64,000 bases of DNA from Candidatus Latescibacterota bacterium (GCA_965221775.1 CBDCSU010000006.1:928001-992000); one strand, 5' to 3'; positions 13,261 to 59,269 are shown, counted from the stretch's first letter. The notes: generated by a model not told the origin, from the letters alone. Numbers and translations are program-made.

Positions 13261-14559
13261 ATGCCCGAATCGAACCACCCGCCGGAGCCGGAGAGGCTGC
13301 GCCACCTGCTGGAGGAGAACGGGGCCCGCGGGGAGGACCTGGACCGCTTCGACCGCATGACCTCGCGGCGGGGGTTCCTGTCGTCGGTGGGCAAAGGCGC
13401 GGCGCTGGCCGGCCTCGGCGTTTTCGGCGCCGGCCCCGACGCGGCCGTGCGGGGCCTCTTCGGCCGCGGGCTCATCCCCGGGGCCTGGGCGGCCGGGGAC
13501 GGACTGCCCAAGCCGGAGATGATCGTCCACTCCGAGGAGCCCTTCAACGGCGAGTTCCCCCCCCATCTGCTCGGCGACGCGGTGACGCCCACGAGCCGCC
13601 ACTTCGTGCGCAACAACGGCGGCATCCCCGGGCGCGCCCGCAGCCGCGACCCGCAGGACTGGAAGCTGACCGTCGACGGCGAGGTCCGCTCGCCGCGCGC
13701 CTTCTCCTACGACGATCTGGGCCGCCTGCCGCAGGTCACGCGCCGGCTGGTGGTCGAGTGCGCCGGCAACGGCCGCAGCCTCTTCGCCCCCGCCGTGGGC
13801 GGCACCCAGTGGGTCCGCGGGGCCGTGGCCTGCAGCGAGTGGACGGGGGTGCGCCTGCGCGACGTGCTCCAGGCCGCGGGGCTGACCGAGAAGGCCGTGT
13901 ACCTCGGCAACCACGGCGAGGACGAGCCGCCGTTCTCGCGGGGCATCCCCGTGGACAAGGCGATGGACGAGCACACCCTCATCGCCCTCAAGATGAACGG
14001 CGAGCCCCTGCCGGCGGCCCACGGCTTCCCGGCGCGCCTGCTGGTCCCGGGCTGGGTCGGCAGCTCCATGCAGAAGTGGCTCCACCGCATCCAGGTCCGC
14101 GACACCGTCCACGACTCCCGGCACATGAGCGGCTATTCCTACCGCGTGCCGGCCTATCCCGTCGCCCCCGGCCACAAGCCGCCGGAGTCGGACATGGCCA
14201 TCGCCACCTCGTGGCGGGTCAAGTCCCTCATCACCGCTCCCGCGCCGGAGGCCGAAGTCCAGCGAGGCCTTCCGCTGCAGGTCAGGGGACACGCCTGGGC
14301 CGGCGAGGGCCAGGTGGCCAGAGTGTTGGTCTCGACCGACTTCGGGGTCCACTGGCAGGAGGCCCGGCTGACGCAACCGGCCAACCGCTACGCCTGGTAC
14401 GGCTGGTCCGCCGAGCTAACCCTCGCCGCCCGGGGTTACTACGAGATCTGGGCCCGCGCCTTCGACGCCGCGGGCAACGCCCAGCCCTTCCGCCAGCCCT
14501 GGAACCCCAAGGGCTACCTCGGCAACGTCATCCACCGGGTGCCGGTGCGGGTGGCCTGA
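13261..14559 (+). CDS. Tat-exported sulfite oxidase family molybdoenzyme (SorT/SoxC-like)
   Basis: Tat motif SRRGFL; FVRNNG, Mo-ligand ECAGNGR, WTGVRL, MNGEPLPAAHGFPARL, dimerisation domain WARAFD..GNAQP..WNPKGY. Confidence 0.92.
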   Translation: MPESNHPPEPERLRHLLEENGARGEDLDRFDRMTSRRGFLSSVGKGAALAGLGVFGAGPDAAVRGLFGRGLIPGAWAAGDGLPKPEMIVHSEEPFNGEFPPHLLGDAVTPTSRHFVRNNGGIPGRARSRDPQDWKLTVDGEVRSPRAFSYDDLGRLPQVTRRLVVECAGNGRSLFAPAVGGTQWVRGAVACSEWTGVRLRDVLQAAGLTEKAVYLGNHGEDEPPFSRGIPVDKAMDEHTLIALKMNGEPLPAAHGFPARLLVPGWVGSSMQKWLHRIQVRDTVHDSRHMSGYSYRVPAYPVAPGHKPPESDMAIATSWRVKSLITAPAPEAEVQRGLPLQVRGHAWAGEGQVARVLVSTDFGVHWQEARLTQPANRYAWYGWSAELTLAARGYYEIWARAFDAAGNAQPFRQPWNPKGYLGNVIHRVPVRVA

Positions 14560-14561
14560 AG

Positions 14562-14885
14562 ACGGCGCGCGGCCGCCCTCGCGTGCGCCGCCCTTCTCGC
14601 CGGGCCCGCGCCGCGGCTCACGGAACGATCCCTCCGTCGTCGGCGGCTCCGCGCCGGCGCCTGTTCCGCCGGCGGCGTGCGGCCGCCTTCGCCTGCACCT
14701 CTCCTCTCCCGGACCCCGTCCCACCCGGCGGCCACAGGGAGTCCCGGTACCAAGCTCGGCCGGCGGCTGCGCTCTGAGCGGCGACTTCGGAGGCGCCGAG
14801 GGGAAGTACCTGCAGGCGTCGAGCTTGACTCCACCCATGTCCGGCCCCCGACGGCCTCGGCTTTGTCTATTCCGTCAGGACCCGG
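14562..14885 (+). pseudogene. Decayed copy of the 5' end of the TPR gene at 17384
   Basis: 14562-14623 aligns ungapped to 17413-17474; 14748-14873 aligns with indels to 17513-17638, then jumps to 17742-17756. Confidence 0.85.
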
Positions 14886-14902
14886 ACGAGGCTCGCCCGC
14901 CG

Positions 14903-16867
14903 TCAGATCTGGGTGAGGAAGCTGCCCGTGGTGCCGGTGAGGTAGTCGATCACCAGGAACACTCCGGCCCCCACGATCTCGCCCAGGATGAGCCCCAGGA
15001 AGAAGGGCCGCAGGCCGCGGTAGAGGCGCACCCCGCCGTAGCGCAGGATCAGCAACTTCAGGCACCAGGCCAGCAGGGCGCTGCAGAAGATGTGGTCCGT
15101 CTTCCAGTTGGCGGCGATTGTGAAGCCGAGCGGGTTCAGCGGCCACCACACGAACTGGTGGCGCACCCACATGAGGGCCGACATCACCCCTCCCCCGATG
15201 AGCATGTAGCGCACGGCGTCCCAGCGCGGGCCTTCGGGCGCCCCGGCGATGCGCGGAGCCATGTCCCTGGGCCCGAAGTGGGTGGACTGCCATGAGAAGA
15301 ACAGGGGGTTGAGGTTGATGCCGCCGTGCTCGTAGGCCATGACCAGGGTGACGTAGGAGGAGCCTGCCAGGCTGACGAGGATGGCGATGACGATCGCCCA
15401 GAACAGCCTCCGCTTCGGACCGCGGATCATCTCGCTCATCTTGAGCCCGTTGGCCACCGAGGACATGACGAAGGAGCGGATCTCCGAGTGCCAGCCGTAG
15501 GAGAAGCCGAGGGCCACCAGGCCCTGGGCGCCGATGGCGGAGGTGCCCACGGTGGAGATCACGAAGGTCGAGGTCATCAGGGGAGGGCGCATGGCCGGGA
15601 TGCCGCCCTCGGCGACGACCCGCGTCAGCGCCATGAACAGGACCATGGCGCCGAAGACGAAGAGCAGCGCCACGGGAAAGGGAAGGCCGATCGCCGTCAG
15701 CCAGACGGCGACGATCAGCAGGCCGAGGAGAAGCCCGAAGAAGGCCTGCCGGTAGGTGAGGATCTCGCCGCTGTCGTCGACCTCCCGGGACCCGCGGAGG
15801 GCCTTGGCCGCCACCTGCCGCAGGTGCCTGCGCGCCACCCACAGACCGACGAGGACGAAGACGATCACCGCCCCGAGGCCCTGGTGGGCGAGGATGGGGT
15901 CCCTCCCGGAGTAGAAGTCGATCCGCTGCGTGCTGTGCACCCCGAGGACGTTCAGGACGCCCCGCTGCAGCCGGACGAGGAGGTAGAAGACCCAGATCGA
16001 GGCCGAGATGTCGAGGCTGACGAAGTAGAAGAACCCCGTCCACGGCGGGCTGAACCAGAAGCTGAACCAGGTGTTGCCGAAGGCGGGCAGCACGAAGATG
16101 CGCTCGAGGCGCGGGATCTCCGGAAAGTAGGAGTGCAGCCCGTTGACGCTGAGCAGCAGGAAGGAGACGGCGAAGCCCAGCCACATCGTCCGGTTGGTGA
16201 AGAACGAGCGGCCCACGGCGCCGCCCTCGGCCCGCTGGATCATCTCCATCGGCACCTGCACCAGGGCGTAGGTCAGCCGCTCGTTGTCGACCCACTGCCG
16301 GCGCAGGATCACCATGGCGCAGATCATGGCGAAGCCGAGAGCCAGGAAGAAGCCGAACCACAGGCCCAGGGGCACCACCCAGGCGCCCCACGGGATCGAG
16401 GCCCCCTCGGGCAAGCCCTCGAAGAAGTAGCGGGCCACGCCCTCGCCCCGCGGGATCATCCACTCGGGGATGTACTGATTGTAGAGCTCGTCCCAGTTGT
16501 TCTCCGGCGTGGCGTAGTACGTCGAGCCGAGGAGGCAGGGGATGATGAACTGGGTGAAGCCCATGCCGGGGATGCAGCAGGCCACCACCAGCATGACGTA
16601 GATCGTGATCAGCTCCGACCGGGTCAGCGCCAGCCACCGGTGCAGGAGGCCCACGGCGCCGCTGGCCAGGACGAGAAAGAAGAAGAAGAAGAGCGCGGCG
16701 GGGGTGCTGAAGTTGAGGGTCAGGTACGACCCCTGGATCGCGTTCGTCGCGTAGGTGTCGCAGACGTTGAGCACCAGGGACAACACGGCCCCGATGAGGA
16801 GGCCCCGCAACGGGATCCCCCGCAGATCGCGCGGGTGCTGCCGGTCCTTCTGAGGTGGTGCCGTCAT
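14903..16867 (-). CDS. Polytopic membrane protein, DUF6785/DUF6784-like putative transporter (copy 1)
   Basis: 654 aa with many TM segments; LRRQWVDNERLTY, RVVAEGG, WWPLNPLG, LRYGG..RPFFLGLILG; near-identical to 34543-36507. Family name from recollection. Confidence 0.8.
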   Translation of the reverse strand: MTAPPQKDRQHPRDLRGIPLRGLLIGAVLSLVLNVCDTYATNAIQGSYLTLNFSTPAALFFFFFLVLASGAVGLLHRWLALTRSELITIYVMLVVACCIPGMGFTQFIIPCLLGSTYYATPENNWDELYNQYIPEWMIPRGEGVARYFFEGLPEGASIPWGAWVVPLGLWFGFFLALGFAMICAMVILRRQWVDNERLTYALVQVPMEMIQRAEGGAVGRSFFTNRTMWLGFAVSFLLLSVNGLHSYFPEIPRLERIFVLPAFGNTWFSFWFSPPWTGFFYFVSLDISASIWVFYLLVRLQRGVLNVLGVHSTQRIDFYSGRDPILAHQGLGAVIVFVLVGLWVARRHLRQVAAKALRGSREVDDSGEILTYRQAFFGLLLGLLIVAVWLTAIGLPFPVALLFVFGAMVLFMALTRVVAEGGIPAMRPPLMTSTFVISTVGTSAIGAQGLVALGFSYGWHSEIRSFVMSSVANGLKMSEMIRGPKRRLFWAIVIAILVSLAGSSYVTLVMAYEHGGINLNPLFFSWQSTHFGPRDMAPRIAGAPEGPRWDAVRYMLIGGGVMSALMWVRHQFVWWPLNPLGFTIAANWKTDHIFCSALLAWCLKLLILRYGGVRLYRGLRPFFLGLILGEIVGAGVFLVIDYLTGTTGSFLTQI

Positions 16868-16921
16868 CGGGGGTTTGGCGGGTGGTGCCTCACGAGGCGG
16901 GGAGCCTCACCCGCCGGCCAG

Positions 16922-16991
16922 GCCGGGAGGAGTCCGCCCCCGGGCGTCCATCCTCCCCATCAGGGACTCGGCCTGGCTCGCGGAGACGACG
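16922..16991 (-). pseudogene. 70-nt fragment of the alpha/beta-hydrolase gene at 56251
   Basis: 62/70 ungapped identity to 56362-56431 (manual count). Confidence 0.85.
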
Positions 16992-17175
16992 CCGGTCGAG
17001 TATTCCCGCCAGGGGCGTGGGCAGGCGCCAGGAGGCCCGACCTCACCGAGGACGAGCCATGGATCGCGGGTTGCAGAGACGGTGCAAGACCAATCGAAGG
17101 CGGCTGTGCAGGCCAGGAGATGGGTTCGTAGGTTGCAGAAAGCAAAGCTGCCTACCTGCCGCGAGAGGCTTCCCT

Positions 17176-17387
17176 TCATTCTCATGCTGCTGTCCCTGAT
17201 CCGCAAGGAGACCGCCCCCCGGGCTGGCGGAGAAGGCCGTGTGCCCGGGCCACCACGGCGAGGACGAGCCGCCCTTCCGGCGGGCATCCCCGTGGACGAG
17301 ATCCTGGCCCGCGCCCTCGACGCGGCGGGCAATGTCCAGCCCTTCCGGGGGAGCATCCTCCACCGGGCGCCGGTGTGGGCGGCGTGA
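17176..17387 (+). pseudogene. Chimeric remnant: ABC-permease start fused to an internally deleted sulfite oxidase copy
   Basis: 17176-17211 matches 57873-57908 at 35/36; 17221-17387 is a mosaic of 13879-13959, 14443-14492 and 14521-14559. Confidence 0.88.
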
Positions 17388-18907
17388 ACTCCACCCCGCG
17401 GCCGTTCCCCCGGCGGCGCACCGCCGTCTACGCCTGCGCCGCCGTCCTCGCCGGGTCAGCGCTCCGCCTCGCGGCCCAGGAGGCGCCGGCGCCAAGCAGC
17501 GCCGAGGACCTCTACCAGCTCGGCCGCCGCTGCGCCCGGAGCCGCGACTACGCGTGCGCCGAGGAGAACTACCGGAAGGCCGTCGAACTGGACTCCACCC
17601 ATGTGCAGGCCCTCGACGGCCTCGGCTTCGTCTACTCCCTGCAGCGCCGCTTCCCCGAGGCCCGGAAGGCCCTGGAGCGGGCCCTGAGCCTCGATGCCGA
17701 TCACGTCCCCTCCCTCTACAAGCTGGGCAAGCTGTTCCTGATCCGTCAGGACCCGGCCCGGGCCGAGGAGGCCTTCCGGAAGGCGATCGCCGGCGATCCG
17801 GGCTACTACCTCGCCCATCACGGCCTCGGCATGATCCACGCGCGCGGCGACCCCCCGGCGGCGGCGCGCCACTTCGAGACCGCCCACCGCCTAAACCCGA
17901 ACTACCCTCCCTCCCTCTACCGCCTCGGCGGCATCTACCTGGAGGAGCAGGAGTACGGCAAGGCGATCGCCGCCCTGAAGAGGGCCGCCGAGCTGGCCCC
18001 GGAGGAACCCTCCCTCCACTATCTCCTCGGCACCGCGCTCATGGCCGTGGGCCAACTGTCGGAAGCGGTCGAAGCCCTGCAGGCGAGCCTCCGCCTGGAC
18101 CCGCGGAGAGCCGCCGTCCACCACAAGCTGGGCCGGGTCTTCGCCGAGCAGGCCCACGCCCCGCTGGGGACGGCGATGTCGGACCAGGACCTGCTCGCCG
18201 CTTCCGTGGCGGCCCATCGCAAGGCGGTGGAGCTGGCCCCGGGCCACGGCGGCTTCCAGCACAGCCTCGGCATGGCCTACGAGCGGCAGCGGGAGTACGC
18301 CCAGGCGGCGGACCAGTACGAGCGGGCCCTGGCCGCCGACCCGGACCTGGCGTACACGCGCTTTCGCCTGGGCGGCATCTACTCGCGGGAGGCGCGGCAC
18401 GAGGAAGGCATCGCCCAGCTGCGGCAGGCCGTCCGCCTCGAGCCGGAGAACTCCCTCTTCCACTATGCCCTGGGCGCGGCCCATGCCCGCGCCGACAGCA
18501 CCGGCCTGGCGATCCCGGAGTTCCGCAAGGCGATCGACCTCGACCCCTACAACACGGAGGCCCACTACGGTCTGGCCAGGGCCCTGATGCAGCAGGGCCG
18601 GCGCGAGGAGGGCCGGCAGGCGATGGCCGTCTTCCGCGAGCAGAGCCGCGAGAGTCTCGACGATCTCGAGCGCAGTGTCGCCATGTCGCCGGACAACCCG
18701 AGGTTCCACGCCGAGCTCGCCGTGCAGTACTCCCGGCGCGGCCGGCACCTGCGGGCGATCAACGAGCACAAGCTCGCCATCGCCCTGGCGCCCACGAACG
18801 CCCGCTACCACAGGGACCTGGGGGAGACCTACAGGAAGGCGGGCCGCTACGAGGACGCCCGCAGGCAGTTCGCCATCGCGAAGCGGCTGGCCGGGCGGAG
18901 TCCGTGA
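17384..18907 (+). CDS. Secreted tetratricopeptide repeat protein
   Basis: Signal-peptide-like N-terminus; more than ten TPR units (A...Y/F.KA..LDP....LG). Confidence 0.88.
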   Translation: MNSTPRPFPRRRTAVYACAAVLAGSALRLAAQEAPAPSSAEDLYQLGRRCARSRDYACAEENYRKAVELDSTHVQALDGLGFVYSLQRRFPEARKALERALSLDADHVPSLYKLGKLFLIRQDPARAEEAFRKAIAGDPGYYLAHHGLGMIHARGDPPAAARHFETAHRLNPNYPPSLYRLGGIYLEEQEYGKAIAALKRAAELAPEEPSLHYLLGTALMAVGQLSEAVEALQASLRLDPRRAAVHHKLGRVFAEQAHAPLGTAMSDQDLLAASVAAHRKAVELAPGHGGFQHSLGMAYERQREYAQAADQYERALAADPDLAYTRFRLGGIYSREARHEEGIAQLRQAVRLEPENSLFHYALGAAHARADSTGLAIPEFRKAIDLDPYNTEAHYGLARALMQQGRREEGRQAMAVFREQSRESLDDLERSVAMSPDNPRFHAELAVQYSRRGRHLRAINEHKLAIALAPTNARYHRDLGETYRKAGRYEDARRQFAIAKRLAGRSP

Positions 18908-20607
18908 CCGGCTGCGGGCTCTCCCGGCGGACCGCCCTTCTCCTGGTGCTTGTGCCGGCCCTGGGGCCCGGGGCTGCCGCGGCCGCCGCCGAGACCGCGG
19001 CGGGCGGCGTGCAGTTCACGGATGTGGCCGCCGATGTGGGCGTCACCCTCCTCAACGTCTCCGGCGAGGAGGAGCAGGAGTACCTCGTCGACACGATGAT
19101 GGGCGGCGCCGCCTTCCTCGACCACGACGGCGACGGCGACCTCGACCTCTACGTCCTCAACGGCGGGCGCATCGGCGGGTTCCCCGAAGGCGGGGACCCG
19201 CGCAACGCCCTCTACCGCAACGACGGCGACGCCTTCGCCGACGACACCGAAGCCGCCGGTCTCGGGGACACGGGCTGGGGGATGGGCGTCGCCGTCGCCG
19301 ACTACGACAACGACGGCGACCCGGACGTCTTCATCACCAACTACGGCGGCAACGTCCTCTACCAGAACGAGGGCGGGAGCTTCGCCGACGTCACGGCGCG
19401 CGCCGGCGTCGGCGACGACGGCTTCGGCACGGGCTGCGCCTTCTTCGACTCCGACCGCGACGGCGACCTCGATCTCTACGTGGCCAACTACGTCGACTTC
19501 CGCCACTTCATGGAGACCACGCCCCAGCGGCGCCACACCTGGCGCGGCCTGACCGTCCACTTCGGGCCCCGCGGGCTGCGCGGCGAGCCGGACGTCTTCT
19601 ACCGCAACGAGGGGGACGGCCGCTTCACCGACGCCACCGCGGCGGCCAACCTGGTCGACGAGGAGCGGCTCTACGGGCTCGGCGTCGTCGCCGGCGACCT
19701 CGACGACGACGGCCACGCCGACCTCTACGTGGCCAACGACACGGGCCCCAACTACCTCTACCGGAACCAGGGCGACGGCACCTTCGAGGAACTGGGCTGG
19801 ATGGCGGGTGTCGCCTACGGCGAGTCCGGCGAGGCCCAGGGGTCGATGGGCATCGCCCTGGGCGACTACGACAACGACGAGGACGCCGACATCCTGGTGA
19901 CCAACTTCTGGGAGGAGACCAACACCCTGTACCGCAACGACGGCGGCGGCGAGGTCTTCTCGGACGTCACCTTCGCGGCGCGGGTCGGCCTCGAGAGCTT
20001 CCCCTTCCTGGCGTGGGGGACCGAGTTCTTCGACTACGACAACGACGGCGACAAGGACCTCTTCGTCGCCAACGGCCACATCTTCCCCCAGGTGGACAGG
20101 GCCAACCTCGGGGTGGCCTATGCCCAGCGGAACCAGCTCTTCGAGGGCCTGGGCGACGGCACTTTCGACGAGGTCTCACTGGCCGCCGGACCCGGCCTGC
20201 AGATCGAGAAGGTGAGCCGGGGCGCCGCCTTCGGCGACTACGACGACGACGGCGACGTGGACATCCTCGTCCTCAACCTGAACGACGCCCCCACCCTGCT
20301 GCGCAACGACGGCGGCAACCGGGCCAACTGGCTGCTGGTGCGCACCGTCGGCACGGCGAGCAACCGGGACGGCGTCGGCGCCAAGGTGCGCGTCCGCTGC
20401 GGGGAGCGGACCCAGGTGCGGGAGGTGGCCAGCGGGTCCAGCTACCTGTCGAGCAGCGACCCGCGCCTGCACTTCGGCCTCGGCGAGGCCGCCCGCGTCG
20501 ACGAGGTGCGGGTCTCCTGGCCCAACGGGCTCGTCGAGGCCTGGCGCGGCCTGGAGGCGAACCAGCTCCTCGTGGTCCGCGAGGGCAGCGGCGCTCAGCC
20601 CGACTGA
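18904..20607 (+). CDS. CRTAC1-family FG-GAP repeat protein with ASPIC/UnbV C-terminal domain
   Basis: Repeated DxDxDGDxDLYV, FxDVT motifs; SNRDGVGAKV and SYLSSSDPRLHFGLG. Confidence 0.9.
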   Translation: MTGCGLSRRTALLLVLVPALGPGAAAAAAETAAGGVQFTDVAADVGVTLLNVSGEEEQEYLVDTMMGGAAFLDHDGDGDLDLYVLNGGRIGGFPEGGDPRNALYRNDGDAFADDTEAAGLGDTGWGMGVAVADYDNDGDPDVFITNYGGNVLYQNEGGSFADVTARAGVGDDGFGTGCAFFDSDRDGDLDLYVANYVDFRHFMETTPQRRHTWRGLTVHFGPRGLRGEPDVFYRNEGDGRFTDATAAANLVDEERLYGLGVVAGDLDDDGHADLYVANDTGPNYLYRNQGDGTFEELGWMAGVAYGESGEAQGSMGIALGDYDNDEDADILVTNFWEETNTLYRNDGGGEVFSDVTFAARVGLESFPFLAWGTEFFDYDNDGDKDLFVANGHIFPQVDRANLGVAYAQRNQLFEGLGDGTFDEVSLAAGPGLQIEKVSRGAAFGDYDDDGDVDILVLNLNDAPTLLRNDGGNRANWLLVRTVGTASNRDGVGAKVRVRCGERTQVREVASGSSYLSSSDPRLHFGLGEAARVDEVRVSWPNGLVEAWRGLEANQLLVVREGSGAQPD

Positions 20608-22268: not shown

Positions 22269-22290
22269 TCTTCCCTCCTTTTCTCTTTGC

Positions 22291-24996: not shown

Positions 24997-25011
24997 CCTG
25001 CCATCCCCCCT

Positions 25012-26730: not shown

Positions 26731-26740
26731 GGGGGCGCGG

Positions 26741-29422: not shown

Positions 29423-29423
29423 C

Positions 29424-31373: not shown

Positions 31374-31469
31374 GGATTCGCCTCCTCCACGGACGGAAAC
31401 CGCCGTTACGGTAGCTAGCCCCTTCGGGAGCCGTCAAGCGCCGCGGCGCCCCCCGGAGAGACCGCTTTC

Positions 31470-32849: not shown

Positions 32850-32857
32850 CGGATCTC

Positions 32858-38036: not shown

Positions 38037-38080
38037 AGGGAACGGCGCTGCCGTCGCCGCAAGAGACGGCTGATACCATG

Positions 38081-38118: not shown

Positions 38119-38150
38119 GTCCCCCCACGGAAACAGGAGGGTTTGCTCTG

Positions 38151-39266: not shown

Positions 39267-39269
39267 CGG

Positions 39270-43446: not shown

Positions 43447-43453
43447 GCAGCGG

Positions 43454-44788: not shown

Positions 44789-44828
44789 CCGCGCCGGATC
44801 GCCCGGGCTCGCGCGAGCGCGGCTCCCC

Positions 44829-47800: not shown

Positions 47801-47807
47801 GTTGTCT

Positions 47808-48512: not shown

Positions 48513-48534
48513 CGGCGGGCCTCCGGGAGCGGTT

Positions 48535-50867: not shown

Positions 50868-51568
50868 CAGATCTTCCAGGGCGCGTTCCCTGCGGCCCAC
50901 TGCTCCTCCAGACTCACCACGTCCCGCAGCGTGTCCATGCACTGCCAGAAGCCCTCGTGCCTGTACGCCCGCAGTTGTCCATCCTGCGCGAGCCGGGTCA
51001 TCGGCTCGCGCTCGAAGATGATCTCGTCGCCGGAGATGTAGTCGAGGACACCGGGATCGAGGACGAAGAACCCGCCGTTGATCCACCCGGCATCGAGCTG
51101 CGACTTCTCGCGGAAGTCGCGTACCAGATCGCCTTCGAGCTCCAGGCGACCGAAACGGGAGGGCGGGTGGACGGCCGTTACGGTGGCGAGACCGCCGTGG
51201 GATCCGTGGAAGGCGGCGAGGCGGGGGATGTCGACATCTCCGACCCCGTCGCCATAGGTCAGCATGAAGGTCTCTTCGCCGATCCAGTCAGCGAGCCGTC
51301 GGATCCTTCCTCCGGACTCGACATCCTGACCGGTATCGACGGGGTGGACGATCCAGTCCTCGCCGCAGTCTCTGCTGAAGAAGTCCTCGATGACTTCCCC
51401 CTTGTAGCCGAGGGCGATGACGAACTCCCGGAAGCCGTGGGCCTGGTAGATCTTCATGATATGGCAGAGAATCGGCTGGCCGCCGATCTCGACCATCGGC
51501 TTCGGCCTGACCGCGGTCTCCTCCTGGAGCCTGGTGCCCATGCCGCCCGCCAGGATCACCACCTTCAC
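50864..51568 (-). CDS. rfbF: Glucose-1-phosphate cytidylyltransferase
   Basis: ILAGGMGTRL, PKPMVEIG, LTYGDG, WINGGFF, GFWQCMDT, APWKIW. Confidence 0.93.
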   Translation of the reverse strand: MKVVILAGGMGTRLQEETAVRPKPMVEIGGQPILCHIMKIYQAHGFREFVIALGYKGEVIEDFFSRDCGEDWIVHPVDTGQDVESGGRIRRLADWIGEETFMLTYGDGVGDVDIPRLAAFHGSHGGLATVTAVHPPSRFGRLELEGDLVRDFREKSQLDAGWINGGFFVLDPGVLDYISGDEIIFEREPMTRLAQDGQLRAYRHEGFWQCMDTLRDVVSLEEQWAAGNAPWKIW

Positions 51569-53535
51569 AGCGCCGTCAGCGCCTTCAGCACCCGGACCCG
51601 CGCCTCGTCGGCCAGGGTGCGGTCCACGCTCTCGTCCAGCCATTGGGTGCGGCGTGAGAACGCGGCATCGGAGACACTCGTCGGCAGGCTCTCCAGCAAC
51701 CGGCGAGCCTCCTCCACTTCCGGACCCGTCGGCCCCCGCGCCGACGCCTCCCGGACCGCGCGGTCCAGCATGGCGAAGTACTCGTAGTCCTCCACCCCTT
51801 CCCGCTGGGCCTCCAGGTGCTTGCCGGCCGTCACCGAGTCCTCGGAGAGAAACATGGGCGCGTACGAGTTCCGCTCGGCCACGTATTCGTTCCAGGAGGA
51901 GGAACCGCCCGTATCGGTGAGCGACCAGAAGTGCATCCCCGTGGCCCCGTAGCGCCAGCACCACCACGCCGCGAGCCGGTAGTAGGCGTACGGATCGAGC
52001 AGCCGCGTCGGCCCGTCCGCATTGTAGAACTCCAGCACCGTCCCCTGGTCGCGCTTCTCCAGGAAGTAGTCCCGATACTCCCGGGCCGCGTCATCGGGCC
52101 GTATGGGGGCGGAGCTGTTCAGGAAGATCTTGATGTGCGGGCACAACACGTGGCAGGCATCGATCATCGCCTGCAGGGCCTGGCTCATGTCCCGGTGGTT
52201 CACGTCCTCCCAGATGCGGACCCCCGTATCCGCTTCCCGGATCGCCTTCGCCCACGCCAGGATGATGGGGTCCCGATCCGGATCCTCGTCAGGCTCATCC
52301 ACCAGGAGCAGGGTCAACTGTTCCGGCCTCAGCCCCTTCTTCACCGCGTGCCCGACCCAGAACGCGGCCCATGCCTTCACGGCCGTCGCGAATTCCGGCG
52401 TGTCCATGTCCCATGAGCTCTCCCCCTCACCTGCAAAGACGAAACGACGGCCTACCTTGGCGAAGACGAGGTACTGGGCCGCGTCCGGCCACATCTCGAG
52501 CCAGGCATCGAACTTGGCCGTCTCCGGGGGCACCGTCATCATCCCCTGCTCGTCATAGGCGCCCCGCACGTCCGGGTAGTACGGATTGATCAGCCGGGGC
52601 GACCCCCACGGCGAGTCCACGAGACGTTCGCGCAGGTGCCGGATGATCAGCGGCCGGTTCTGCCGGGTCACGGCCTGGTATTCGCCGAGCTCGTCCGTGT
52701 AGTCCCATCCGCCCAGGTTCAGCGACTGCCTCTCCGGGAACTCCAGGGGATACAGGTGCATGCGCAGCGGAATCCTGCCGCCGGGCCCGGACTCCACGAC
52801 GACCTCGCCCTCATGGACTCCCGCCTCCACGTCCACCGGATGGAAGGTGAGCCACACCTGACGGGTCATGCCGGAGGGCACGGTCACCGCGTACAGGCCG
52901 TCCTCGGCAGCGACCTCGGGCAGGGCCGCCGCCACCGGCACCCCGCCCCGGGTGTCCGTCCAGGCCACCTCGTGAACCGTCACATACGTCGGATTGTCGC
53001 CGCCGGGGAGGCCGCTCAGGCGGAAGGTCACCTGCGCCGGCCCGTCGCCGCTGTTGCTCACGTTGAAGGCCGCCGCCCGGTGCTCCCTGCGCATGAGGTG
53101 TACCTCGACCGCCGGTTCCCCCGTCGTGTCCGGCAGACCGATGTAGGGAAGGGGATCCCACAGGTTCGAAGACCAGAAGGCCAGCGGCTCCAGGCCGCTG
53201 GCGCGCCACAGCCGCGCCTGCGTGCGCAACACCCGCTCGTGCCACGGGTTCAGCGGCAGCACGGCCCGGAAGTCATCCCCGAAGGTTGTGCAGGCCTGCC
53301 CCAGCTCCCCTTCCACGGCTGCCAGCTCGGCCAGCACGCCGCGGCGCGTCGGCGCCGGTACCCCCTCTTCTTCCGCGGCCTTCCTGAGGGCCTCGATGTC
53401 CCGCACAAGGCGCGTCCGGATCCCTTCCTGGATGGCGGTCCTGGCCTTCTCGTCCAGTCGGTCCGCCGGGACCGCCGCCTGCGCCCACGGCAGTCCTGCC
53501 ATCAGCATCGCCGCCGCTGCCGATGTCCATCCCAT
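51565..53535 (-). CDS. Secreted DUF4091/GH123-like protein (short paralogue)
   Basis: Signal peptide; LVDEP; C-terminal LEAQREGVEDYEYF typical of DUF4091. Confidence 0.65.
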   Translation of the reverse strand: MGWTSAAAAMLMAGLPWAQAAVPADRLDEKARTAIQEGIRTRLVRDIEALRKAAEEEGVPAPTRRGVLAELAAVEGELGQACTTFGDDFRAVLPLNPWHERVLRTQARLWRASGLEPLAFWSSNLWDPLPYIGLPDTTGEPAVEVHLMRREHRAAAFNVSNSGDGPAQVTFRLSGLPGGDNPTYVTVHEVAWTDTRGGVPVAAALPEVAAEDGLYAVTVPSGMTRQVWLTFHPVDVEAGVHEGEVVVESGPGGRIPLRMHLYPLEFPERQSLNLGGWDYTDELGEYQAVTRQNRPLIIRHLRERLVDSPWGSPRLINPYYPDVRGAYDEQGMMTVPPETAKFDAWLEMWPDAAQYLVFAKVGRRFVFAGEGESSWDMDTPEFATAVKAWAAFWVGHAVKKGLRPEQLTLLLVDEPDEDPDRDPIILAWAKAIREADTGVRIWEDVNHRDMSQALQAMIDACHVLCPHIKIFLNSSAPIRPDDAAREYRDYFLEKRDQGTVLEFYNADGPTRLLDPYAYYRLAAWWCWRYGATGMHFWSLTDTGGSSSWNEYVAERNSYAPMFLSEDSVTAGKHLEAQREGVEDYEYFAMLDRAVREASARGPTGPEVEEARRLLESLPTSVSDAAFSRRTQWLDESVDRTLADEARVRVLKALTAL

Positions 53536-53538
53536 GGA

Positions 53539-56154
53539 CTACTCACCGGCCAGCGCCGTCAGCGCCGCCAGCACCTGGACCCGCGCCTTGTCCGCCAGGG
53601 TGCGGTCGACTTCCTCGTTGAACCAGTGGAACCCGTTCAGGGGCTGGCTGGCGTCGACCTCGCCCCCGTGGCCCGCCGCATCGCAGACACTCGCCGGCAG
53701 ACTCTCCAGCAGGCGGCGGGCCTCCTCCACCTCCGGACCCGTCCTCCCCCGGGCGGACGCCTTCCGGAGCGCCCGGTCCAGCATGGCGAAGTACTCGTAG
53801 TCCTGGACGCCTTCCCGCGTCGCCTCGAGGTGCTTGCCGGCGGTCACCGAGTCCTCGTCGATGAAGATCGGCGAGTACGCATCCTTGAAGGTGAGATACT
53901 CGTTCCACGATGACGCTCCGCCCGTGTCGGTGAGGGACCACATGTAGAACGCCGACGCCCCGAAGCGCCAGCTGGTCCACGCCGTGAGCCGGCTGGCGTA
54001 CGGATCCCAGATCCGGCTCGTCCACGCCGCGTAGAACTCCAGCCCGATCCCCTGGTCCCGCTTGTTCACGAAGTAGTCGCGGTACTCCTGGCCCTGGGTC
54101 AGGAAGCTGACGTAGTTCGGGCTCAGAACGTGGCACGCGTCGATCATCTCCTGGTCCGCCTCGTCCATGTCCCGGTGGGTGACATCCTCCCAGATGCGGA
54201 CTCCCGTGTCGGCCTCGCGGATGGGCCTCGCCCACGCCAGGATGCGCTCGTCCTGCCACGGCTCGTCCGGCTCATCCACCAGGAGCAGCCCGAACTGTTC
54301 CGGCCGCAATCCACTCGCCTTCATGTGCTCCGCCCAGAACGTGACCCACGCCTTCACCGCCGTGTTGAACTCCGGCGTGCCCATGGGCAACGACTCGAAG
54401 TGCCTTCCCACCTTCGCGAAGACGAGGTACTGGGCCGCGTCCGGCCACAAGTCGATCCAGGCATCGAAGTAGTCGGTGGAGGGCGGCGCCGTCATCGCCC
54501 CCCGCGCGTCGTGGGTGCCCCGTGGCAGGGCGAGCTTGAGGGCCCACGGCGAGTCGACGCGGTGCTCGCGCAGGTGGTCGATGATCCCCTGCCGGTTCTG
54601 CGCCGTCAGAAGGGGGAAGTGGCCGATCCGGTCCGTGTAGTCCCACCCCCCCATGTGCAGCGACTGCTCTTCGGGGAAGTCGAGGGGATACAGGTGCATG
54701 CGCAGCGGAAACCGCCGGCCCTCGCCGGACTCCACCACGACCTCGCCCTCGTGGGCGCCCGCCTCCACGTCCACGGGATGGAAGGTGAGCCACACCTGGC
54801 GGGTCATGCCCGAGGGCACGGAGACCGTGTACAGGCCGTCCCCGCCCGGGGCCACCTCGGGCAGGGCCGCCGCCACCGGGTCCCCTCTCCGGGTATCGGT
54901 CCAGGCGACTTCGTGAACGGTGACGTACTCGGGATTGCCGCCCCCGGGCAGACCCTCCAGGCGGAAGGCCACCTCCGCCGACTCGTCACCGCTGTTGCTC
55001 ACGTTGAACGCCGCCGCGCGGTACTCCCCGCGCATCAGGTGAACCTCGACGGCGGGCTCCGACGACGTGTCGGGGGTACCGACGAGGGGCACCGGGTCCC
55101 ACAGGTTCGGAGACCAGAACGTGAGCGGCTCCAGTCCCCGGGCGCGCCACAGCCGCGCCTGCGTGCGAAGGACCCGCTCGTGCCAGGGATTCAGGGGCAG
55201 CACCGCCCGGAAGTCGTCCCCGAAGGCCATGGCCGGCCCCAGTTCCCCTTCGACCGCCGCCAGCTCGGCCAGCACGTCACTCCGCGTCGGCGCCGGCACA
55301 CCCTCTTCCTCCGCCGCCGCTCTCAGGGCCTCGATGTCGCGCACGAGGCGCGTCCGGATCCCCTTCTGGATGGCGAGCCCGCCGGCGTAGACCTGGACAT
55401 CGGGGATGGCCGGCCCCGGCAGCGGCTCCTTCAGCCACTCCGGCTCTCCCGCCCAGACCTCGATCTCGTCGACGAAGGTGTACGGCTCGTTCCACACGAC
55501 CAGGCTGACATAGCGGCCGTGGGTCCGCAACCGGTCGGTGCGGTACCGGTACGTCCCGTACTGGGAAGCGCGCATCTCGTTGAGATCGCGGATGATCCTC
55601 TCGCGCAGCTCGGGGGTGAGCTTCTTCCCCGGGTAGCGCTCCCGGTCGCGGTCCCAGTAGTGATGTATCTCCGCGTTGGAGAACTGCATGCCCTCCCGGG
55701 CCCATATGGCGTCGCTCGCCCTCTCCGGCACGAGGGGGCCGTGTTGTTGCTCGCTCAGCTCCACCAAGTCGCCGATCTCGTGGAACACCCCGTCCTCACC
55801 CGCCACGAGGATGCGGATCATCAGCGGCCACGTCACGTCGGCGAAGCCGCCCGCCGTGCTGAAGGAGACCCCGCGTATCGGCTTCACCGCCCCCAGGTCC
55901 AGCGTGAAGACCGAGGGCGTCTTCTCCTGCCACCCCACCGTCGACAGCTCCGCCCAGAAGTAGCCGTCCGTGTACATCCCGTCGGTCAGCTGCTCGCTGT
56001 CGCCGGCCTCCGTGCAGAGCCCGTAGTTCGGCCCCGGGGACAGCGTGTAGCTCGCCCCGAGGGCGATGTTCTCGCTCGGACGGTCCGCGGGGTCCGCCGC
56101 GGACGGCTGGGCAAGGGCCGCCATCAACGCCACCGCTGTCAATGCTCGTTGCAT
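53539..56154 (-). CDS. Secreted DUF4091/GH123-like protein with extra N-terminal discoidin-like domain (long paralogue)
   Basis: NIALGASY..QLTDG..LDLG..FVDEIEV; LVDEP; REGVQDYEYF; tandem paralogue of 51565. Confidence 0.65.
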   Translation of the reverse strand: MQRALTAVALMAALAQPSAADPADRPSENIALGASYTLSPGPNYGLCTEAGDSEQLTDGMYTDGYFWAELSTVGWQEKTPSVFTLDLGAVKPIRGVSFSTAGGFADVTWPLMIRILVAGEDGVFHEIGDLVELSEQQHGPLVPERASDAIWAREGMQFSNAEIHHYWDRDRERYPGKKLTPELRERIIRDLNEMRASQYGTYRYRTDRLRTHGRYVSLVVWNEPYTFVDEIEVWAGEPEWLKEPLPGPAIPDVQVYAGGLAIQKGIRTRLVRDIEALRAAAEEEGVPAPTRSDVLAELAAVEGELGPAMAFGDDFRAVLPLNPWHERVLRTQARLWRARGLEPLTFWSPNLWDPVPLVGTPDTSSEPAVEVHLMRGEYRAAAFNVSNSGDESAEVAFRLEGLPGGGNPEYVTVHEVAWTDTRRGDPVAAALPEVAPGGDGLYTVSVPSGMTRQVWLTFHPVDVEAGAHEGEVVVESGEGRRFPLRMHLYPLDFPEEQSLHMGGWDYTDRIGHFPLLTAQNRQGIIDHLREHRVDSPWALKLALPRGTHDARGAMTAPPSTDYFDAWIDLWPDAAQYLVFAKVGRHFESLPMGTPEFNTAVKAWVTFWAEHMKASGLRPEQFGLLLVDEPDEPWQDERILAWARPIREADTGVRIWEDVTHRDMDEADQEMIDACHVLSPNYVSFLTQGQEYRDYFVNKRDQGIGLEFYAAWTSRIWDPYASRLTAWTSWRFGASAFYMWSLTDTGGASSWNEYLTFKDAYSPIFIDEDSVTAGKHLEATREGVQDYEYFAMLDRALRKASARGRTGPEVEEARRLLESLPASVCDAAGHGGEVDASQPLNGFHWFNEEVDRTLADKARVQVLAALTALAGE

Positions 56155-56250
56155 CCTGTCCCTCGCTTTCGAGTGGCCTCGGATAACCTCGAATCGACTC
56201 AATACTAAGGAATGGGGCCCCGGCTCCGGCTACCCCTCCACGGCCCGCGA

Positions 56251-57660
56251 TCAACCCCCCAGGGACGCGAGCCAGTCCCGGAGAAAGACCGCCGACCGCG
56301 GGATGAGCCCGTCGAGGGAGAAATAGGAGTGCCCGCCCCCGGGGTAGATGAAGGCCTCGAAGCCGGGCGGCGTCCGCCCCAGGGCGTCCATGGTCCCGAT
56401 GAGGGACTCGGCCTGGCTCACGGAGACGACGTCGTCGTCGGTGCCGTGGTGAAGCTGCACGGGAGGCAGGTATTCGGCGAAGAGCACGGCCGACCTGCGG
56501 GTCAGCTCCAGGCGCGCCTCCGGGAGGGGCACCTCGCCGCGGACGAAGGGCGTGATGACGGTGGAGTCGAGGTGGGCCACCGACGGCAGGTCCCGGGGGC
56601 TCCCCAGGGCGGCATCACGCGCGATCCCGCGAACCCAGCCGTCGAAGAAGTCGGTGGGGCCGAAGACGGCGACGATGCGCTCGATGCGCTGGTCGCGGAT
56701 CCCGGCCAGCAGCGCCACCCCCGCCCCCCGGCTGGCGCCGACGACGGCCATCCCGCCGGGGCGGGCCTCCGGCGTCGACTCGAGGACGGCGTTGACCAGC
56801 GCCAGGGTGTCGTCCACGTCGTGGTCCCACGGGCTCGCCGGGCCCTCGGAGACCCGGCTCTCGCCGCCGTGAATCAGCGGCTCGGCCCGGAAGGAGGGGA
56901 TCACGTAGACGAAGCGCTCCACCAGCGGGCCGAGGGCGAAGGCGACGATCTGGATGTCGTCCACCGACACGCCGCTGTCGCCGCCGTGCAGGTAGAGCAG
57001 CAGGGGCAGGCTCCCGGCGGCGGCCCCTTCGGGCACGAGGACGGCGCCGTAGTGCAGGACCCCGTCCACCCGGTGGGAGAGGATCCGCAGGGCGCACGCC
57101 CGGCCGGCCAGGGAGTACCCCTCCTGGTGTTCCACCGCCACCCCGCGGGCCGAGACGTCGCGGGCGGCCCAGTCGGAGCGGACGGCCTCCACCTCCGCCG
57201 CCGAAGCGGGCGCGAAGAGGGCGTCCAGCTCGCCGTCGAGATCGACGGCCTCGGCGGCCACCGAGACGACGGTGTCGGCCGCCGAGACCCGGAGGCTCTG
57301 CACGCCGACGCCGGCGCCGAGGGTCCAGGTGGAGGCCGCCCTCCCGTCGGCGCCGGTGGCGGCCGAGGTCGGGTCCGCCTCGCCGTGGCCGGCGGCGGGG
57401 GCGAAGGCGACGCTCACGCCGGGGACGGGCCGGCCCCGGGCGTCGACCACCTGCACGACCACCGCGGCCGCCAGGGAGCGGCCCGGCAGGGCGCGCTGGC
57501 CGAGGCCGGAGACTACCTCCATCGACGCCGGCTGCGAGCCGGGGCCCGTTGGGCCGCCGGACCCGCCGCAGCCGGTCATGGCGGCGAGCAGGAGGAGCCC
57601 AAACCGGCCGCCCAGGTATGGGAGATGTCGCGGTTGGCTGCTTATACTCGTATCTCTCAA
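56251..57660 (-). CDS. Lipoprotein with Ig-like domain and S9-type alpha/beta-hydrolase; start uncertain
   Basis: LLAAMTGC lipobox; LYLHGG, GASRG (GxSxG), HHGTDDDVV, GGGH; possible TTG at 57660 or ATG at 57579. Confidence 0.75.
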   Translation of the reverse strand: MRDTSISSQPRHLPYLGGRFGLLLLAAMTGCGGSGGPTGPGSQPASMEVVSGLGQRALPGRSLAAAVVVQVVDARGRPVPGVSVAFAPAAGHGEADPTSAATGADGRAASTWTLGAGVGVQSLRVSAADTVVSVAAEAVDLDGELDALFAPASAAEVEAVRSDWAARDVSARGVAVEHQEGYSLAGRACALRILSHRVDGVLHYGAVLVPEGAAAGSLPLLLYLHGGDSGVSVDDIQIVAFALGPLVERFVYVIPSFRAEPLIHGGESRVSEGPASPWDHDVDDTLALVNAVLESTPEARPGGMAVVGASRGAGVALLAGIRDQRIERIVAVFGPTDFFDGWVRGIARDAALGSPRDLPSVAHLDSTVITPFVRGEVPLPEARLELTRRSAVLFAEYLPPVQLHHGTDDDVVSVSQAESLIGTMDALGRTPPGFEAFIYPGGGHSYFSLDGLIPRSAVFLRDWLASLGG

Positions 57661-57672
57661 CTGGAGAGCCTC

Positions 57673-57846
57673 ATGACCACGATCACAAAGCTTGAGCCGA
57701 CGCGGTGGCCTCCCGGGTTCTGGGGCGCCTTCGCCCCGGATCCCGACTTCGGGATGCCGTCCCCGCTTCCGTCCTCGGCCGTCGATCTGGATGACCCCGA
57801 TGCCCCCGGCCCGGGTCCCGGACCGAGCGCAGAGGACTGGAGCTGA
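57673..57846 (+). pseudogene. Collapsed vapBC toxin-antitoxin remnant
   Basis: 57-aa ORF: MTTITKL followed by VapB-like tail WPPGFW..PDPDF; the 3' end resembles a VapC C-terminus (RVP..AEDWS, frameshifted); TATACT at 57643 and GGAG RBS. Confidence 0.5.
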
Positions 57847-57880
57847 TCCGGGCGGCGCGCTGCACCGCCCTCTCATTCTC

Positions 57881-59269
57881 ATGCTGCCGTCCCTGATCCG
57901 CAAGGAGATCGTCCTCGGCGTCCTCAGCCTGCGCTTCGCCGTGACCTTCGTCCTGTTCTTCGTGCTCACGCTGGTGAGCGTCTTCACCATGACCCGCGGC
58001 TACGAGCGGGCCCTGCGGCTGCACGAGGTCGGCGCCGCCCGCCACCACGAGCAGGTCCGCGGAGTCCAGGAAGCCGAGGAGCCCGACGAGGCCCTCCACG
58101 ACATCCTCTTCGGCGGCGACGGGTTCTACGGCGACCGCGCGCCCCGGCCCATGGGCGTCTTCGTCAAGGGCCTGGAGGACCGCCTGCCGACGCAGGTCAA
58201 CGTCAGCCTGTGGCATGTCCGCCCCGTCGACGACGACCGCTACCGCAACCCCCTCTTCCGGCTCTTCGCCTCACCCGACTACGCCTACATCGCCAACATC
58301 GTCATCTCGCTGCTGGCCCTGCTCTTCGTCTTCGACGCCGTCTGCGGCGAGAAGGAACGGGGCACCCTGAAGATCCTGCTGGCCAACCGCGTGCCCCGCG
58401 ACCTGGTGCTGCTGGGCAAGTGGATCGGCGGCTACCTGTCCCTCGCGGTGCCGCTGGCGGCGGCCCTCTTCGCCTCCCTCACCTACGTGGTACTCACCGG
58501 CGCCGTGCGCGTGGACGCCGACTTCCTGTCGCGGTTCCTGTGGATCGCCGGGGTCTCCCTGCTCTACGTCTCCGTGTTCTTCGGCCTGGGCATGCTCATC
58601 TCCACCCTGACCCACAAGGCGTCGACGGCGCTCCTCGTCTCCCTCTTCGTGTGGATCTGCTGGATCCTCGTCATCCCCAACCTGGCCCCGGTGGCGGCGC
58701 GCCTGGCGGTGCCGGTGCCGACGCGGCAGAAGATCGAGGCCGAGAAGGAGGCCGTGGACCGGGAGACGCAGATCGGCGTGCAGCGGGTCAACCGCAACAT
58801 GCTCGGCTACGGCCGCAAGGCCGAGGAGATGGTCGAGGAGATCGAGAAGCAGGGGGACGCGCGCAAGGACCGGATCGATCAGTACTACCATGGCCGCCTG
58901 CGCCGCCAGGTCGACCTGAGCCGCAACCTGTCGCGGGCCTCGCCCTCGGCCAGCTTCGTGCTCGCCGCCAGCGACCTGGCCGGCACCGGGGTGGATCTCT
59001 TCACCGCCTTCAACACCGCTGTCCGGCGCTACGGCGAGGAGTTCTCCGAGCACTGGTGGGAGTGGGACGAGGAGTACCACGAGAACGACGAGGAGATGCC
59101 CGACGACGCCTGGCTCGAGGTCGACGAATGGCCGGCGCTGCGGGTGGAGCAGGCGCGCCTCGACGACGTGGTCGACGCCGTCCTCCTCGACGTGCTGCTG
59201 CTGGTCGTCTTCAACGTCCTGTTCTTCCTGCTCTCCTACCTGTTCTTCCTGCGCTACGACGTGACCTGA
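57881..59269 (+). CDS. ABC-2-type transporter permease
   Basis: LIRKE..SLRF, FDAVCGEKERGTLKILLANRVPR..LLGK, LVIPNL, ends FLRYDVT. Confidence 0.85.
   Translation: MLPSLIRKEIVLGVLSLRFAVTFVLFFVLTLVSVFTMTRGYERALRLHEVGAARHHEQVRGVQEAEEPDEALHDILFGGDGFYGDRAPRPMGVFVKGLEDRLPTQVNVSLWHVRPVDDDRYRNPLFRLFASPDYAYIANIVISLLALLFVFDAVCGEKERGTLKILLANRVPRDLVLLGKWIGGYLSLAVPLAAALFASLTYVVLTGAVRVDADFLSRFLWIAGVSLLYVSVFFGLGMLISTLTHKASTALLVSLFVWICWILVIPNLAPVAARLAVPVPTRQKIEAEKEAVDRETQIGVQRVNRNMLGYGRKAEEMVEEIEKQGDARKDRIDQYYHGRLRRQVDLSRNLSRASPSASFVLAASDLAGTGVDLFTAFNTAVRRYGEEFSEHWWEWDEEYHENDEEMPDDAWLEVDEWPALRVEQARLDDVVDAVLLDVLLLVVFNVLFFLLSYLFFLRYDVT

Follow-up and report, generated by a model that had tools for sequence, protein, structure and literature searches.

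Colinear gene relics pointing to an old tandem duplication collapsed around a DUF6785/DUF6784 gene in a Candidatus Latescibacterota genome

Amplification-reduction and innovation-amplification-divergence are named models of tandem duplication in bacteria, and tandem duplication-random loss (TDRL) is a model of gene-order change for animal mitochondrial genomes. The subject here is a stretch of 64,000 nt from a Candidatus Latescibacterota bacterium (GCA_965221775.1, CBDCSU010000006.1:928001-992000), called the window below, in which a segment at 13.9-17.2 kb (the left copy) repeats in miniature the order of genes at 17.2-57.9 kb (the right copy). Each copy holds an intact gene of the DUF6785/DUF6784 family, designated gene A on the left and gene B on the right. 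Very probably the arrangement goes back to a tandem duplication that is both real and old, deletions having since reduced the left copy. The locus resembles the remodelling of duplications described in bacteria in its head-to-tail junction at short homology, in a unit apparently shortened by deletion, and in a selected gene that is kept and diverges. However, the known cases come mostly from the laboratory and span days to months, whereas at this locus the scars, with a relic identity of 83-92%, have outlasted speciation, and three genomes allow the collapse to be traced.

According to the review PMC13732712, bacterial duplications are unstable and costly, and extra copies that are retained are probably adaptive. 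Concerted evolution in prokaryotes is treated in PMC6053082. The papers returned by a literature search for "tandem duplication random loss" together with "bacterial" concern, in their accessible parts, mitochondrial genomes only.

Colinear relics and the junction between the copies

Genes were called from the third-position GC signal and from lists of open reading frames (ORFs), and 49 candidate ORFs were scanned against Pfam. The features on which the argument depends are these:

13261-14559, plus strand: intact gene for a sulfite-oxidase-type molybdoenzyme (Pfam Oxidored_molyb, 2.2e-54, and Mo-co_dimer)
14560-14672, plus strand: tandem repeat of ~110 bp, specific to the window, copying the start of the TPR relic (14563-14607 matches 14673-14716)
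14647-14885, plus strand: 5' end of a TPR gene, a decayed pseudogene relic (matches 17389-17638 and 17742-17756)
14886-14902, minus strand: remnant of the DUF6785 3' flank (from comparing 3' flanks among A, X and B copies; X is introduced below)
14903-16867, minus strand: gene A, intact, DUF6785 and DUF6784, 654 amino acids (Pfam DUF6785 E 2e-131)
16868-16919, minus strand: B-type upstream flank, 52 bp, retained next to gene A (homology to 36508-36558)
16922-16994, minus strand: hydrolase relic of 73 bp, an interior 3' part of the gene (64/73 to 56362-56434)
16995-17171, no strand: stretch of 177 bp with no partner in the window
17172-17217, plus strand: relic of an ABC-2 permease start, 13 bp upstream plus 11 codons (match to 57868-57914)
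17217-17221, no strand: novel duplication junction, permease start fused to sulfite-oxidase interior
17221-17388, plus strand: sulfite-oxidase 3' relic in three pieces, opening the right copy (matches 13879-13959, 14441-14492 and 14528-14560)
17375-18907, plus strand: intact TPR gene of the right copy (Pfam TPR families)
34543-36507, minus strand: gene B, DUF6785 and DUF6784, 654 amino acids, heading a minus-strand row (Pfam DUF6785 E 4e-130)
56251-57990, minus strand: intact hydrolase-like gene of the right copy, 579 amino acids (weak Hydrolase_4, Peptidase_S9, that is alpha/beta-hydrolase, and Big_1 matches)
57881-59269, plus strand: intact ABC-2 permease gene (Pfam ABC2_membrane_2, 1.6e-32, for the ORF 57692-59269; ATG placed at 57881 by alignment)

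Window positions 13000-17500 were compared with the whole window by blastn at word size 7, supplemented by local alignments. Eight colinear, same-strand matches with scores of 38-2972 bits link 13.9-17.2 kb to 17.2-57.9 kb:

13879-13959 to 17221-17300, same strand: 70/81 (86%), 94 bits
14441-14492 to 17296-17347, same strand: 46/52 (88%), 68 bits
14528-14560 to 17356-17388, same strand: 38 bits, borderline alone
14647-14873 to 17389-17638, same strand: 185/254 gapped (73%)
14871-14885 to 17742-17756, same strand: 15/15
14903-16919 to 34543-36558, same strand: 92.7% over 2022, 2972 bits
16922-16994 to 56362-56434, same strand: 64/73 (87.7%), 92 bits
17172-17217 to 57868-57914, same strand: 43/47 (91.5%), 64 bits

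The best part of the fourth match (14748-14873 to 17513-17638) covers 126 bp at 82.8% identity and 118 bits. As controls for chance, the same query scored at most 37.4 bits against the reversed window, and the maximum over 20 Markov-1 simulated 64-kb sequences was 39.2 bits; seven of the eight blocks lie well over that simulated maximum. Self-comparison of the whole window gave no competing partner for any relic piece, and blastn within the window gave no inverted or out-of-order piece. Thus, two adjacent copies are present that are colinear and in the same orientation (eight plus-strand matches), as a tandem duplication requires. An earlier reading of this DNA made from the bases alone (the sequence-only reading) had described 13.3-17.2 kb as a miniature of 17.2-57.9 kb in the same order and orientation. 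The eight matches, set against the null maximum, bear this description out, its coordinates proved correct within a few bases, and the small-word blastn that it had proposed found all pieces colinear. Pfam also agrees with its naming of the sulfite oxidase, TPR, DUF6785, hydrolase and ABC permease genes, the hydrolase matches being weak.

The second mark of a tandem duplication, a novel end-to-start junction flanked by truncated breakpoint genes, lies at 17217-17221. Here codon 11 of the ABC-2 permease is fused to sulfite-oxidase sequence from 13879 (codon ~207), with a possible microhomology of 2-3 nt. The breakpoints of the duplicated unit are therefore placed at ~13879 inside the sulfite oxidase (left) and at ~57914 inside the ABC-2 permease (right). 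The sulfite oxidase is whole only at the far left and the permease whole only at the far right, while the junction has a truncated piece of each; this is exactly what head-to-tail duplication of 13879...57914 predicts. Since the left breakpoint falls inside the gene, the right sulfite-oxidase copy would have been a 3' fragment from birth, and this fragment subsequently lost 481 bp and ~35 bp. The second unit does open with a deleted sulfite oxidase followed by the intact TPR gene, as the sequence-only reading had it, and its duplication head to tail with deletions on the left fits the junction, the colinear relics and the truncated left pieces. "Reciprocal gene loss" of the sulfite oxidase, which it also proposed, does not hold, because the 5' half of that gene was never duplicated.

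The left copy is taken to be the reduced one because its relics are truncated or interior pieces of genes whose right-hand versions are complete. An alternative in which the right copy grew by insertions was considered and excluded: the left pieces are truncated, and distant orthologs share the right-copy context. Gene A is the sole working gene remaining in the left copy. Deletions of 21 bp (common to three A-type loci) and 103 bp mark the TPR relic. Other joins in the region have microhomologies too, the range over all junctions being 2-8 nt; the motif GACCCGG lies at the join of the TPR relic with the gene A 3' flank, and ~3-4 nt at that of the gene A upstream flank with the hydrolase relic. 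The joins run from gene to gene, unlike those of duplications mediated by an insertion sequence or transposon. No transposase or integrase Pfam family was found among the 49 scanned ORFs (inverted repeats were not specifically searched), in agreement with the earlier statement that no transposase is involved, and an Rfam scan of the window placed no tRNA at the junctions.

Related genomes, a second copy and the mosaic genes

A scan of a species-representative genome collection with protein A yielded 66 loci, each taken with up to 10 kb of flank and compared with the window by blastn. The assemblies that matter most are OZ220089.1 (loci L013 and L002), CAZEHQ010000124.1 (L004), JAPOZM010000040.1 (L001) and OZ252098.1 (L014 and L016). 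In 12 of the 13 loci with DUF6785 at 84-87% identity, the downstream neighbour of gene B (window 32856-34257) is kept, which argues that the B position is ancestral; genes at 24-29 kb are also kept in most of those 13 loci.

The order in OZ220089.1 is sulfite oxidase, TPR relic, gene A and TPR gene, after which the unit continues as far as gene B at a distance of 18 kb. In CAZEHQ010000124.1, the sulfite oxidase, TPR relic and gene A are present as far as the contig reaches, and the protein is 97% identical to A. Since these independent assemblies share the architecture (the latter its left part), an assembly chimera is disfavoured; and since they carry it with different losses, the architecture appears to be real and older than those species. 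OZ220089.1 has neither of the hydrolase and permease relics and has also lost the distal TPR relic and the first of the sulfite-oxidase pieces; it retains ~22 bp of sulfite-oxidase relic that are absent from the window. The sulfite-oxidase relics of the two genomes have derived substitutions in common. The loss of different relic pieces in different lineages argues that the ancestral relics were longer and that deletion is ongoing. The repeat at 14560-14672 is absent at the same place in CAZEHQ010000124.1 and OZ220089.1. In JAPOZM010000040.1, gene B lies in its usual context on a contig that reaches 65-89 kb to either side, and the protein A scan found no second close DUF6785 copy there. A tree of the neighbouring gene places this genome as sister to OZ220089.1, within the window clade, so that the second copy has presumably been lost wholly.

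The 177 bp at 16995-17171 have no match in the window, and of all loci only OZ220089.1 matches any part of them, over 39 bp: positions 17081-17119 are 85% conserved upstream of gene A there (L013 9743-9781). The conserved piece might serve gene A as a promoter or some other signal. No sigma-70-like promoter and no convincing terminator was found at 14500-17500, and the Rfam scan of the window gave no family at 16995-17171. The 215 bp upstream of gene A in OZ220089.1 (L013 9782-9996) are unrelated to the 213 bp of the window (global alignment z -0.15) and show no relation to any other locus; they look like a replacement by sequence of other origin.

OZ252098.1 contains two close DUF6785 copies 23 kb apart. 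One is in the B context; the other is designated X. Upstream of X, at a distance of 22 nt, is an intact hydrolase ORF of 660 amino acids, and beyond this hydrolase are ABC permeases. The other side of X is occupied by a second hydrolase copy, which is truncated, carries two internal deletions and shares 86-90% identity with the intact one. The 73-bp hydrolase relic of the window matches both of these hydrolase copies (L016) as well. Junctions are present at the X locus too: at one, the truncated hydrolase (57494 in window terms) meets the 3' flank of X; at the other, the hydrolase stop abuts ~25 bp of sequence from upstream of X. The X locus therefore has the appearance of a scar of its own tandem duplication (~34511 to 57494, window terms), collapsed around the DUF6785 gene. 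X, the hydrolase and the permease start come in the same order as gene A and the relics of hydrolase and permease do in the window; the interval from the hydrolase 5' part to the permease start is ~1.2 kb longer in OZ252098.1 (L016 7141-8629). Of the B-type upstream flank, A keeps 52 bp and X ~25 bp; of the B-type 3' flank, X keeps ~29-32 bp and A ~17-24 bp. Because these lengths are not nested, A and X would have been trimmed independently from a less trimmed ancestor, or else repair synthesis ran past the homology. The candidate in which the window arrangement is ancestral and X derived was excluded, as X has more B-type 3' flank than A. Derivation of X by simple deletions from one 41-kb duplicate was also rejected; it would pair X with the window's B, and the central segment described next shows the reverse.

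The ORFs of all A, B and X types are intact. Over the whole gene, synonymous divergence (dS) between A and B, which the sequence-only reading had suggested estimating, is 0.144 and nonsynonymous divergence (dN) 0.042 (dN/dS 0.29); both genes appear to be under purifying selection. A whole-gene DNA tree was built from 24 sequences, namely the two window genes and those of 22 of the 66 loci, the other 44 being distant (mostly ~70% identical). In this tree X joins the B gene of OZ252098.1 (support 99/98), and the A copies form a clade (93/99) among the window-lineage B copies, A and B lying within one clade of six rows. The placement of both copies inside that clade gives no support to integration of a homologous segment from a relative, an option that the sequence-only reading had allowed.

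However, the centre of the gene conflicts with this grouping. Among the sites, 28 separate the three A copies from the three window-lineage B copies; 16 of them fall in alignment columns 754-1003 and are derived in A. X carries 13 of these 16 derived A-type sites, and the B gene of OZ252098.1 is mostly without them. In the central segment as delimited here (columns 720-1010, ~290 bp, residues ~241-337), the A copies and X are 95.2-97.3% alike, the comparison of A with X giving 95.2-95.5%, whereas A is 86.5-91.7% and X 88.2-92.0% identical to the B types. Outside it, copies group by genome (A-B 94.4/94.6% in the window and 95.4/95.0% in OZ220089.1, X-B 95.9/98.7% in OZ252098.1), against 91-93% across genomes. 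Separate trees of the segments used 17 rows. The central-segment tree unites A and X (100/99), with X branching first, then OZ220089.1, then the window with CAZEHQ010000124.1, an order that agrees with the neighbour-gene tree. The flank tree, in conflict with it, shows genome-wise pairs. In the approximately unbiased (AU) test on the central segment, X with the B of OZ252098.1 is rejected (p 0.004). Consequently, the left DUF6785 gene is not simply a twin of the gene at 34.5 kb, as the sequence-only reading had assumed: its central ~290 bp group with X, and the rest groups by genome. Substitution rates differ between the parts as follows:

Flanks, paralogs within a genome: dS 0.055-0.134, dN/dS 0.23-0.27
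Flanks, orthologs between genomes: dS 0.21-0.25, dN/dS 0.15-0.17
Central segment, A-type against B-type: dS 0.125-0.210, dN/dS 0.34-0.74
Central segment, window A against X: dS 0.141, dN/dS 0.10

Outside the centre, paralogs within a genome are thus more alike than orthologs between genomes, which is the pattern of concerted evolution; the central segment behaves in the opposite way. The grouping of the flanks by genome points to gene conversion between A and B. The likeness to concerted evolution of bacterial paralogs lies in this greater similarity of A, B and X copies within genomes; the difference is that the pattern here is mosaic, the central ~290 bp escaping in at least three lineages although the copies are 18-23 kb apart. 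We read A and X as one paralog lineage, probably older than the split of OZ252098.1 from the window clade, whose ends may have been repeatedly overwritten from B while the centre (residues ~241-337) would have been kept distinct by selection. Purifying selection on a type-specific central segment argues that the cell may need two transporter variants.

A proposed history and its alternatives

The history that we favour, with a probability of about 0.55, is that an older paralog, X, was relocated by tandem duplication and complementary losses. In an ancestor, a tandem duplication from the B 3' flank into the hydrolase would have produced a second DUF6785 gene. Collapse of this first duplicate would then have left a truncated hydrolase, X, a hydrolase and the permease in that order, as OZ252098.1 still has them. 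In the window clade, a second tandem duplication, from 13879 to 57914 (~41 kb, or ~44 kb if the extra copy lay inside), may have arisen by illegitimate joining at the level of microhomology in the ancestor of the window organism, OZ220089.1 and CAZEHQ010000124.1. The left copy would have been deleted between the TPR start and X and cut to ~3.3 kb, with the hydrolase brought down to 73 bp, and X would have disappeared from the right copy, for which recombination between the two flanking hydrolase repeats is the simplest route. The net effect would be to shift the paralog by ~40 kb, away from the hydrolase and next to the sulfite oxidase, after which gene conversion may have kept the ends of A and B alike in each genome. 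The colinear relics, the junction, the architecture common to the genomes, the decay particular to each lineage and the mosaic gene tree are observed; the order of events, the removal of X on the right and the reason for selection are what we infer.

Such a history has its closest model in TDRL, in which duplication of a block and complementary losses change gene order; here the A/X paralog ends up beyond the ~40-kb block. The A/X type lies beside the hydrolase in OZ252098.1 and beside the sulfite oxidase in the window clade, its orthology being drawn from 290 bp. TDRL is described for small organelle genomes, and the complementary loss of X, which has left no scar, is inferred rather than seen. 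That the locus holds the full scar pattern of a TDRL event moving a gene ~40 kb, together with a mosaic pair whose specificity cassette of ~97 residues is shielded from conversion, is a tentative proposal, somewhat short of even odds.

Several observations weigh against this history. The AU test rejects the group of A and X on the whole gene (p 3e-7) and on the flanks, so that the orthology of A and X is carried by ~290 bp; the group tested on the whole gene was named after the tree was seen. The limits of the central segment and the groups tested were picked once the data were known, which weakens the p-values of the segment trees. The central dS between A and X, 0.14 (9 synonymous differences), is lower than that between the B types of the same lineages, 0.25 (14.5), and although the counts are small, this would also fit a later lateral exchange. 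Neither the A nor the X arrangement is directly derivable from the other, given the flank lengths, and no larger left copy was found among the 66 loci. The origin of the 177 bp at 16995-17171 and of the unrelated 215 bp of OZ220089.1 is unexplained.

Some of these points would suit a single tandem duplication of ~41 kb with one DUF6785 gene in the unit, A being the twin of B and X arising independently from a separate collapsed duplication. The grouping of copies by lineage in the whole-gene and flank trees, the junctions peculiar to the X locus, the flank lengths that are not nested and the low central dS all speak for this account. It involves at least two large deletions in the left copy (~16.8 and ~19.8 kb) and needs two independent duplications that each collapsed tightly round the same gene. 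It also needs lateral exchange between lineages, or parallel change, of just the ~290 bp at the centre of A and X, yet the tree of that segment follows the species order. Copying of the segment from another paralog was excluded as well: no closer donor exists among the 66 loci, the next best being B types at 90-91%. We regard the single duplication as unlikely, though worth keeping in view; the hydrolase and permease relics are too short to separate the two duplication histories.

A different kind of account dispenses with the 41-kb duplicate altogether. In one-step replicative template switching of the kind termed microhomology-mediated break-induced replication (MMBIR) or fork stalling and template switching (FoSTeS), synthesis would have passed from the TPR start to the DUF6785 gene, 73 bp of hydrolase, 46 bp of the permease start and the sulfite oxidase. 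The short, templated-looking pieces of 46 and 73 bp, the microhomology at the joins, the 177 bp of filler of no known origin and the lack of a larger left copy as an intermediate among the 66 loci fit this. However, all pieces are colinear and in one orientation, which deletions guarantee and template switching does not. The relics also shrink by independent deletions in each lineage, the ancestral sulfite-oxidase relic having been longer than either present one, and the truncated hydrolase copy of OZ252098.1 has internal deletions of the same kind. Template switching, which might still account for the two largest jumps, is thus improbable. An assembly chimera at 17217/17221, or the integration of a foreign segment or mobile element, scarcely merits belief: the window does come from a single assembly, but two independent ones have the same architecture, derived changes are common to their relics, no transposase, integrase or tRNA lies at the junctions, gene A falls within the clade of local B genes, and the mean G+C is 69.8% (a value for the whole 64-kb window only). 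Relocation of X by duplication and complementary losses therefore remains our preferred history.

The DUF6785 protein, the surrounding genes and the meaning of the locus

Gene A scores 439.4 bits against Pfam DUF6785 (cut-off 25) and 101.5 bits against DUF6784 (cut-off 26.4), and gene B 435 and 101.5 bits; NCBIfam has no family for either. A literature search did not find the term "DUF6785", and the family profile, searched against PDB sequences, had no match better than E 0.2. Gene A has no match to Pfam OPT (PF03169), even at E up to 10. For prediction of its structure, 37 of the 68 available sequences were aligned. The model, of low confidence (mean predicted local distance difference test score, pLDDT, 57.8; predicted template modelling score, pTM, 0.58), is almost wholly helical, and its only strong PDB matches are to barley Yellow Stripe 1 (YS1; 7wsr and 7wst), with probability 1.00, E 1.8e-5 and template modelling (TM) scores of 0.55-0.61. 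The fold match covers the whole length at 12-13% identity, and the next PDB match has E 0.03. YS1 is a member of the OPT family. One ESM Atlas cluster of DUF6785 proteins has PF03169 OPT in 11% of its members. By this model, gene A would be like the OPT/Yellow-Stripe transporters in whole-length fold; it is unlike them in its lack of a sequence-level Pfam OPT match and its low identity.

That gene A encodes an OPT-like membrane transporter is a reasonable lead from this model. The name "membrane transporter" in the sequence-only reading accordingly finds some backing in the fold match to YS1, which comes from a low-confidence model. Its claim that only the membrane transporter survives in both copies is right in that the DUF6785 gene is intact in both; the transporter part has the same source. 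In the model, the type-specific segment comprises a helix end, a beta hairpin (257-271), two helices and a poorly predicted loop. Most genomes hold three or more DUF6785 paralogs, with groups ~85% and ~71% identical to A. Genomes with DUF6785 at 92-97% identity are labelled Gemmatimonadaceae/Gemmatimonadota or Candidatus Latescibacterota, so that lineage naming is inconsistent.

Further features of the window are these:

7430-11079: selenocysteine gene row, with selA at 7430-9028, selB at ~9030-10968 and tRNA-Sec at 10988-11079
ends 20607: gene for an FG-GAP/ASPIC protein, next after the TPR gene
20595-34342, minus strand: row of seven genes
36.7-56.2 kb, mixed strands: glycan-related genes and genes of unknown kind
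57881-60659, plus strand: pair of ABC-2 permease genes

The tRNA-Sec (75.1 bits) is the sole Rfam match in the window. The product of 13261-14559 scores under the cut-offs of NCBIfam SorA and SoxC. The FG-GAP/ASPIC gene has internal repeats of ~147 bp at 19100-20320 (68-89% identical), an ordinary repeat-domain structure. The adjacent permeases at 57881-60659 (ABC2_membrane_2 and DUF3526) are mutual paralogs, 69-77% identical in patches. Two adjoining minus-strand genes of a family without a name at 51568-55375 (656 and 887 amino acids) are tandem paralogs, 75% identical over 1.9 kb; the pair is also present in locus L016 of OZ252098.1.

A gene for a PcRGLX-like protein of 1374 amino acids (39268-43466) is absent from that place in OZ220089.1 and JAPOZM010000040.1 and present in OZ252098.1, and a gene of 459 amino acids at 31470-32849 (the 31439-32802 region) is absent in OZ220089.1. 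Thus, the gene content of the duplicated unit varies among close relatives. Identity to OZ220089.1 also changes within 20 kb, from 96.6% at 23058-31439 to 85.3% at 43466-50726. The more diverged part carries sugar-nucleotide and glycosyltransferase genes (GT2, DegT, epimerase, nucleotidyl transferase), and its divergence suggests recombinational replacement.

The locus reveals no new kind of molecular system. Every process invoked is already known; what is unusual is the completeness of the scars and the presence of three genomes at different stages. Natural remains of bacterial tandem duplications are seldom seen, because duplications are thought to be frequent, costly and short-lived. This locus would be a natural record of a large duplicate trimmed to the one gene worth keeping, and a concrete case of gene relocation without a mobile element. 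If the proposed history is true, gene conversion over ~20 kb would keep most of both transporter genes alike in at least three lineages, and the central cassette of ~97 residues would set the substrate or partner specificity of an uncharacterised OPT-like family. Within the DUF6785/DUF6784 family, the paralog pair marks residues ~241-337 as the region that may have diverged in function.

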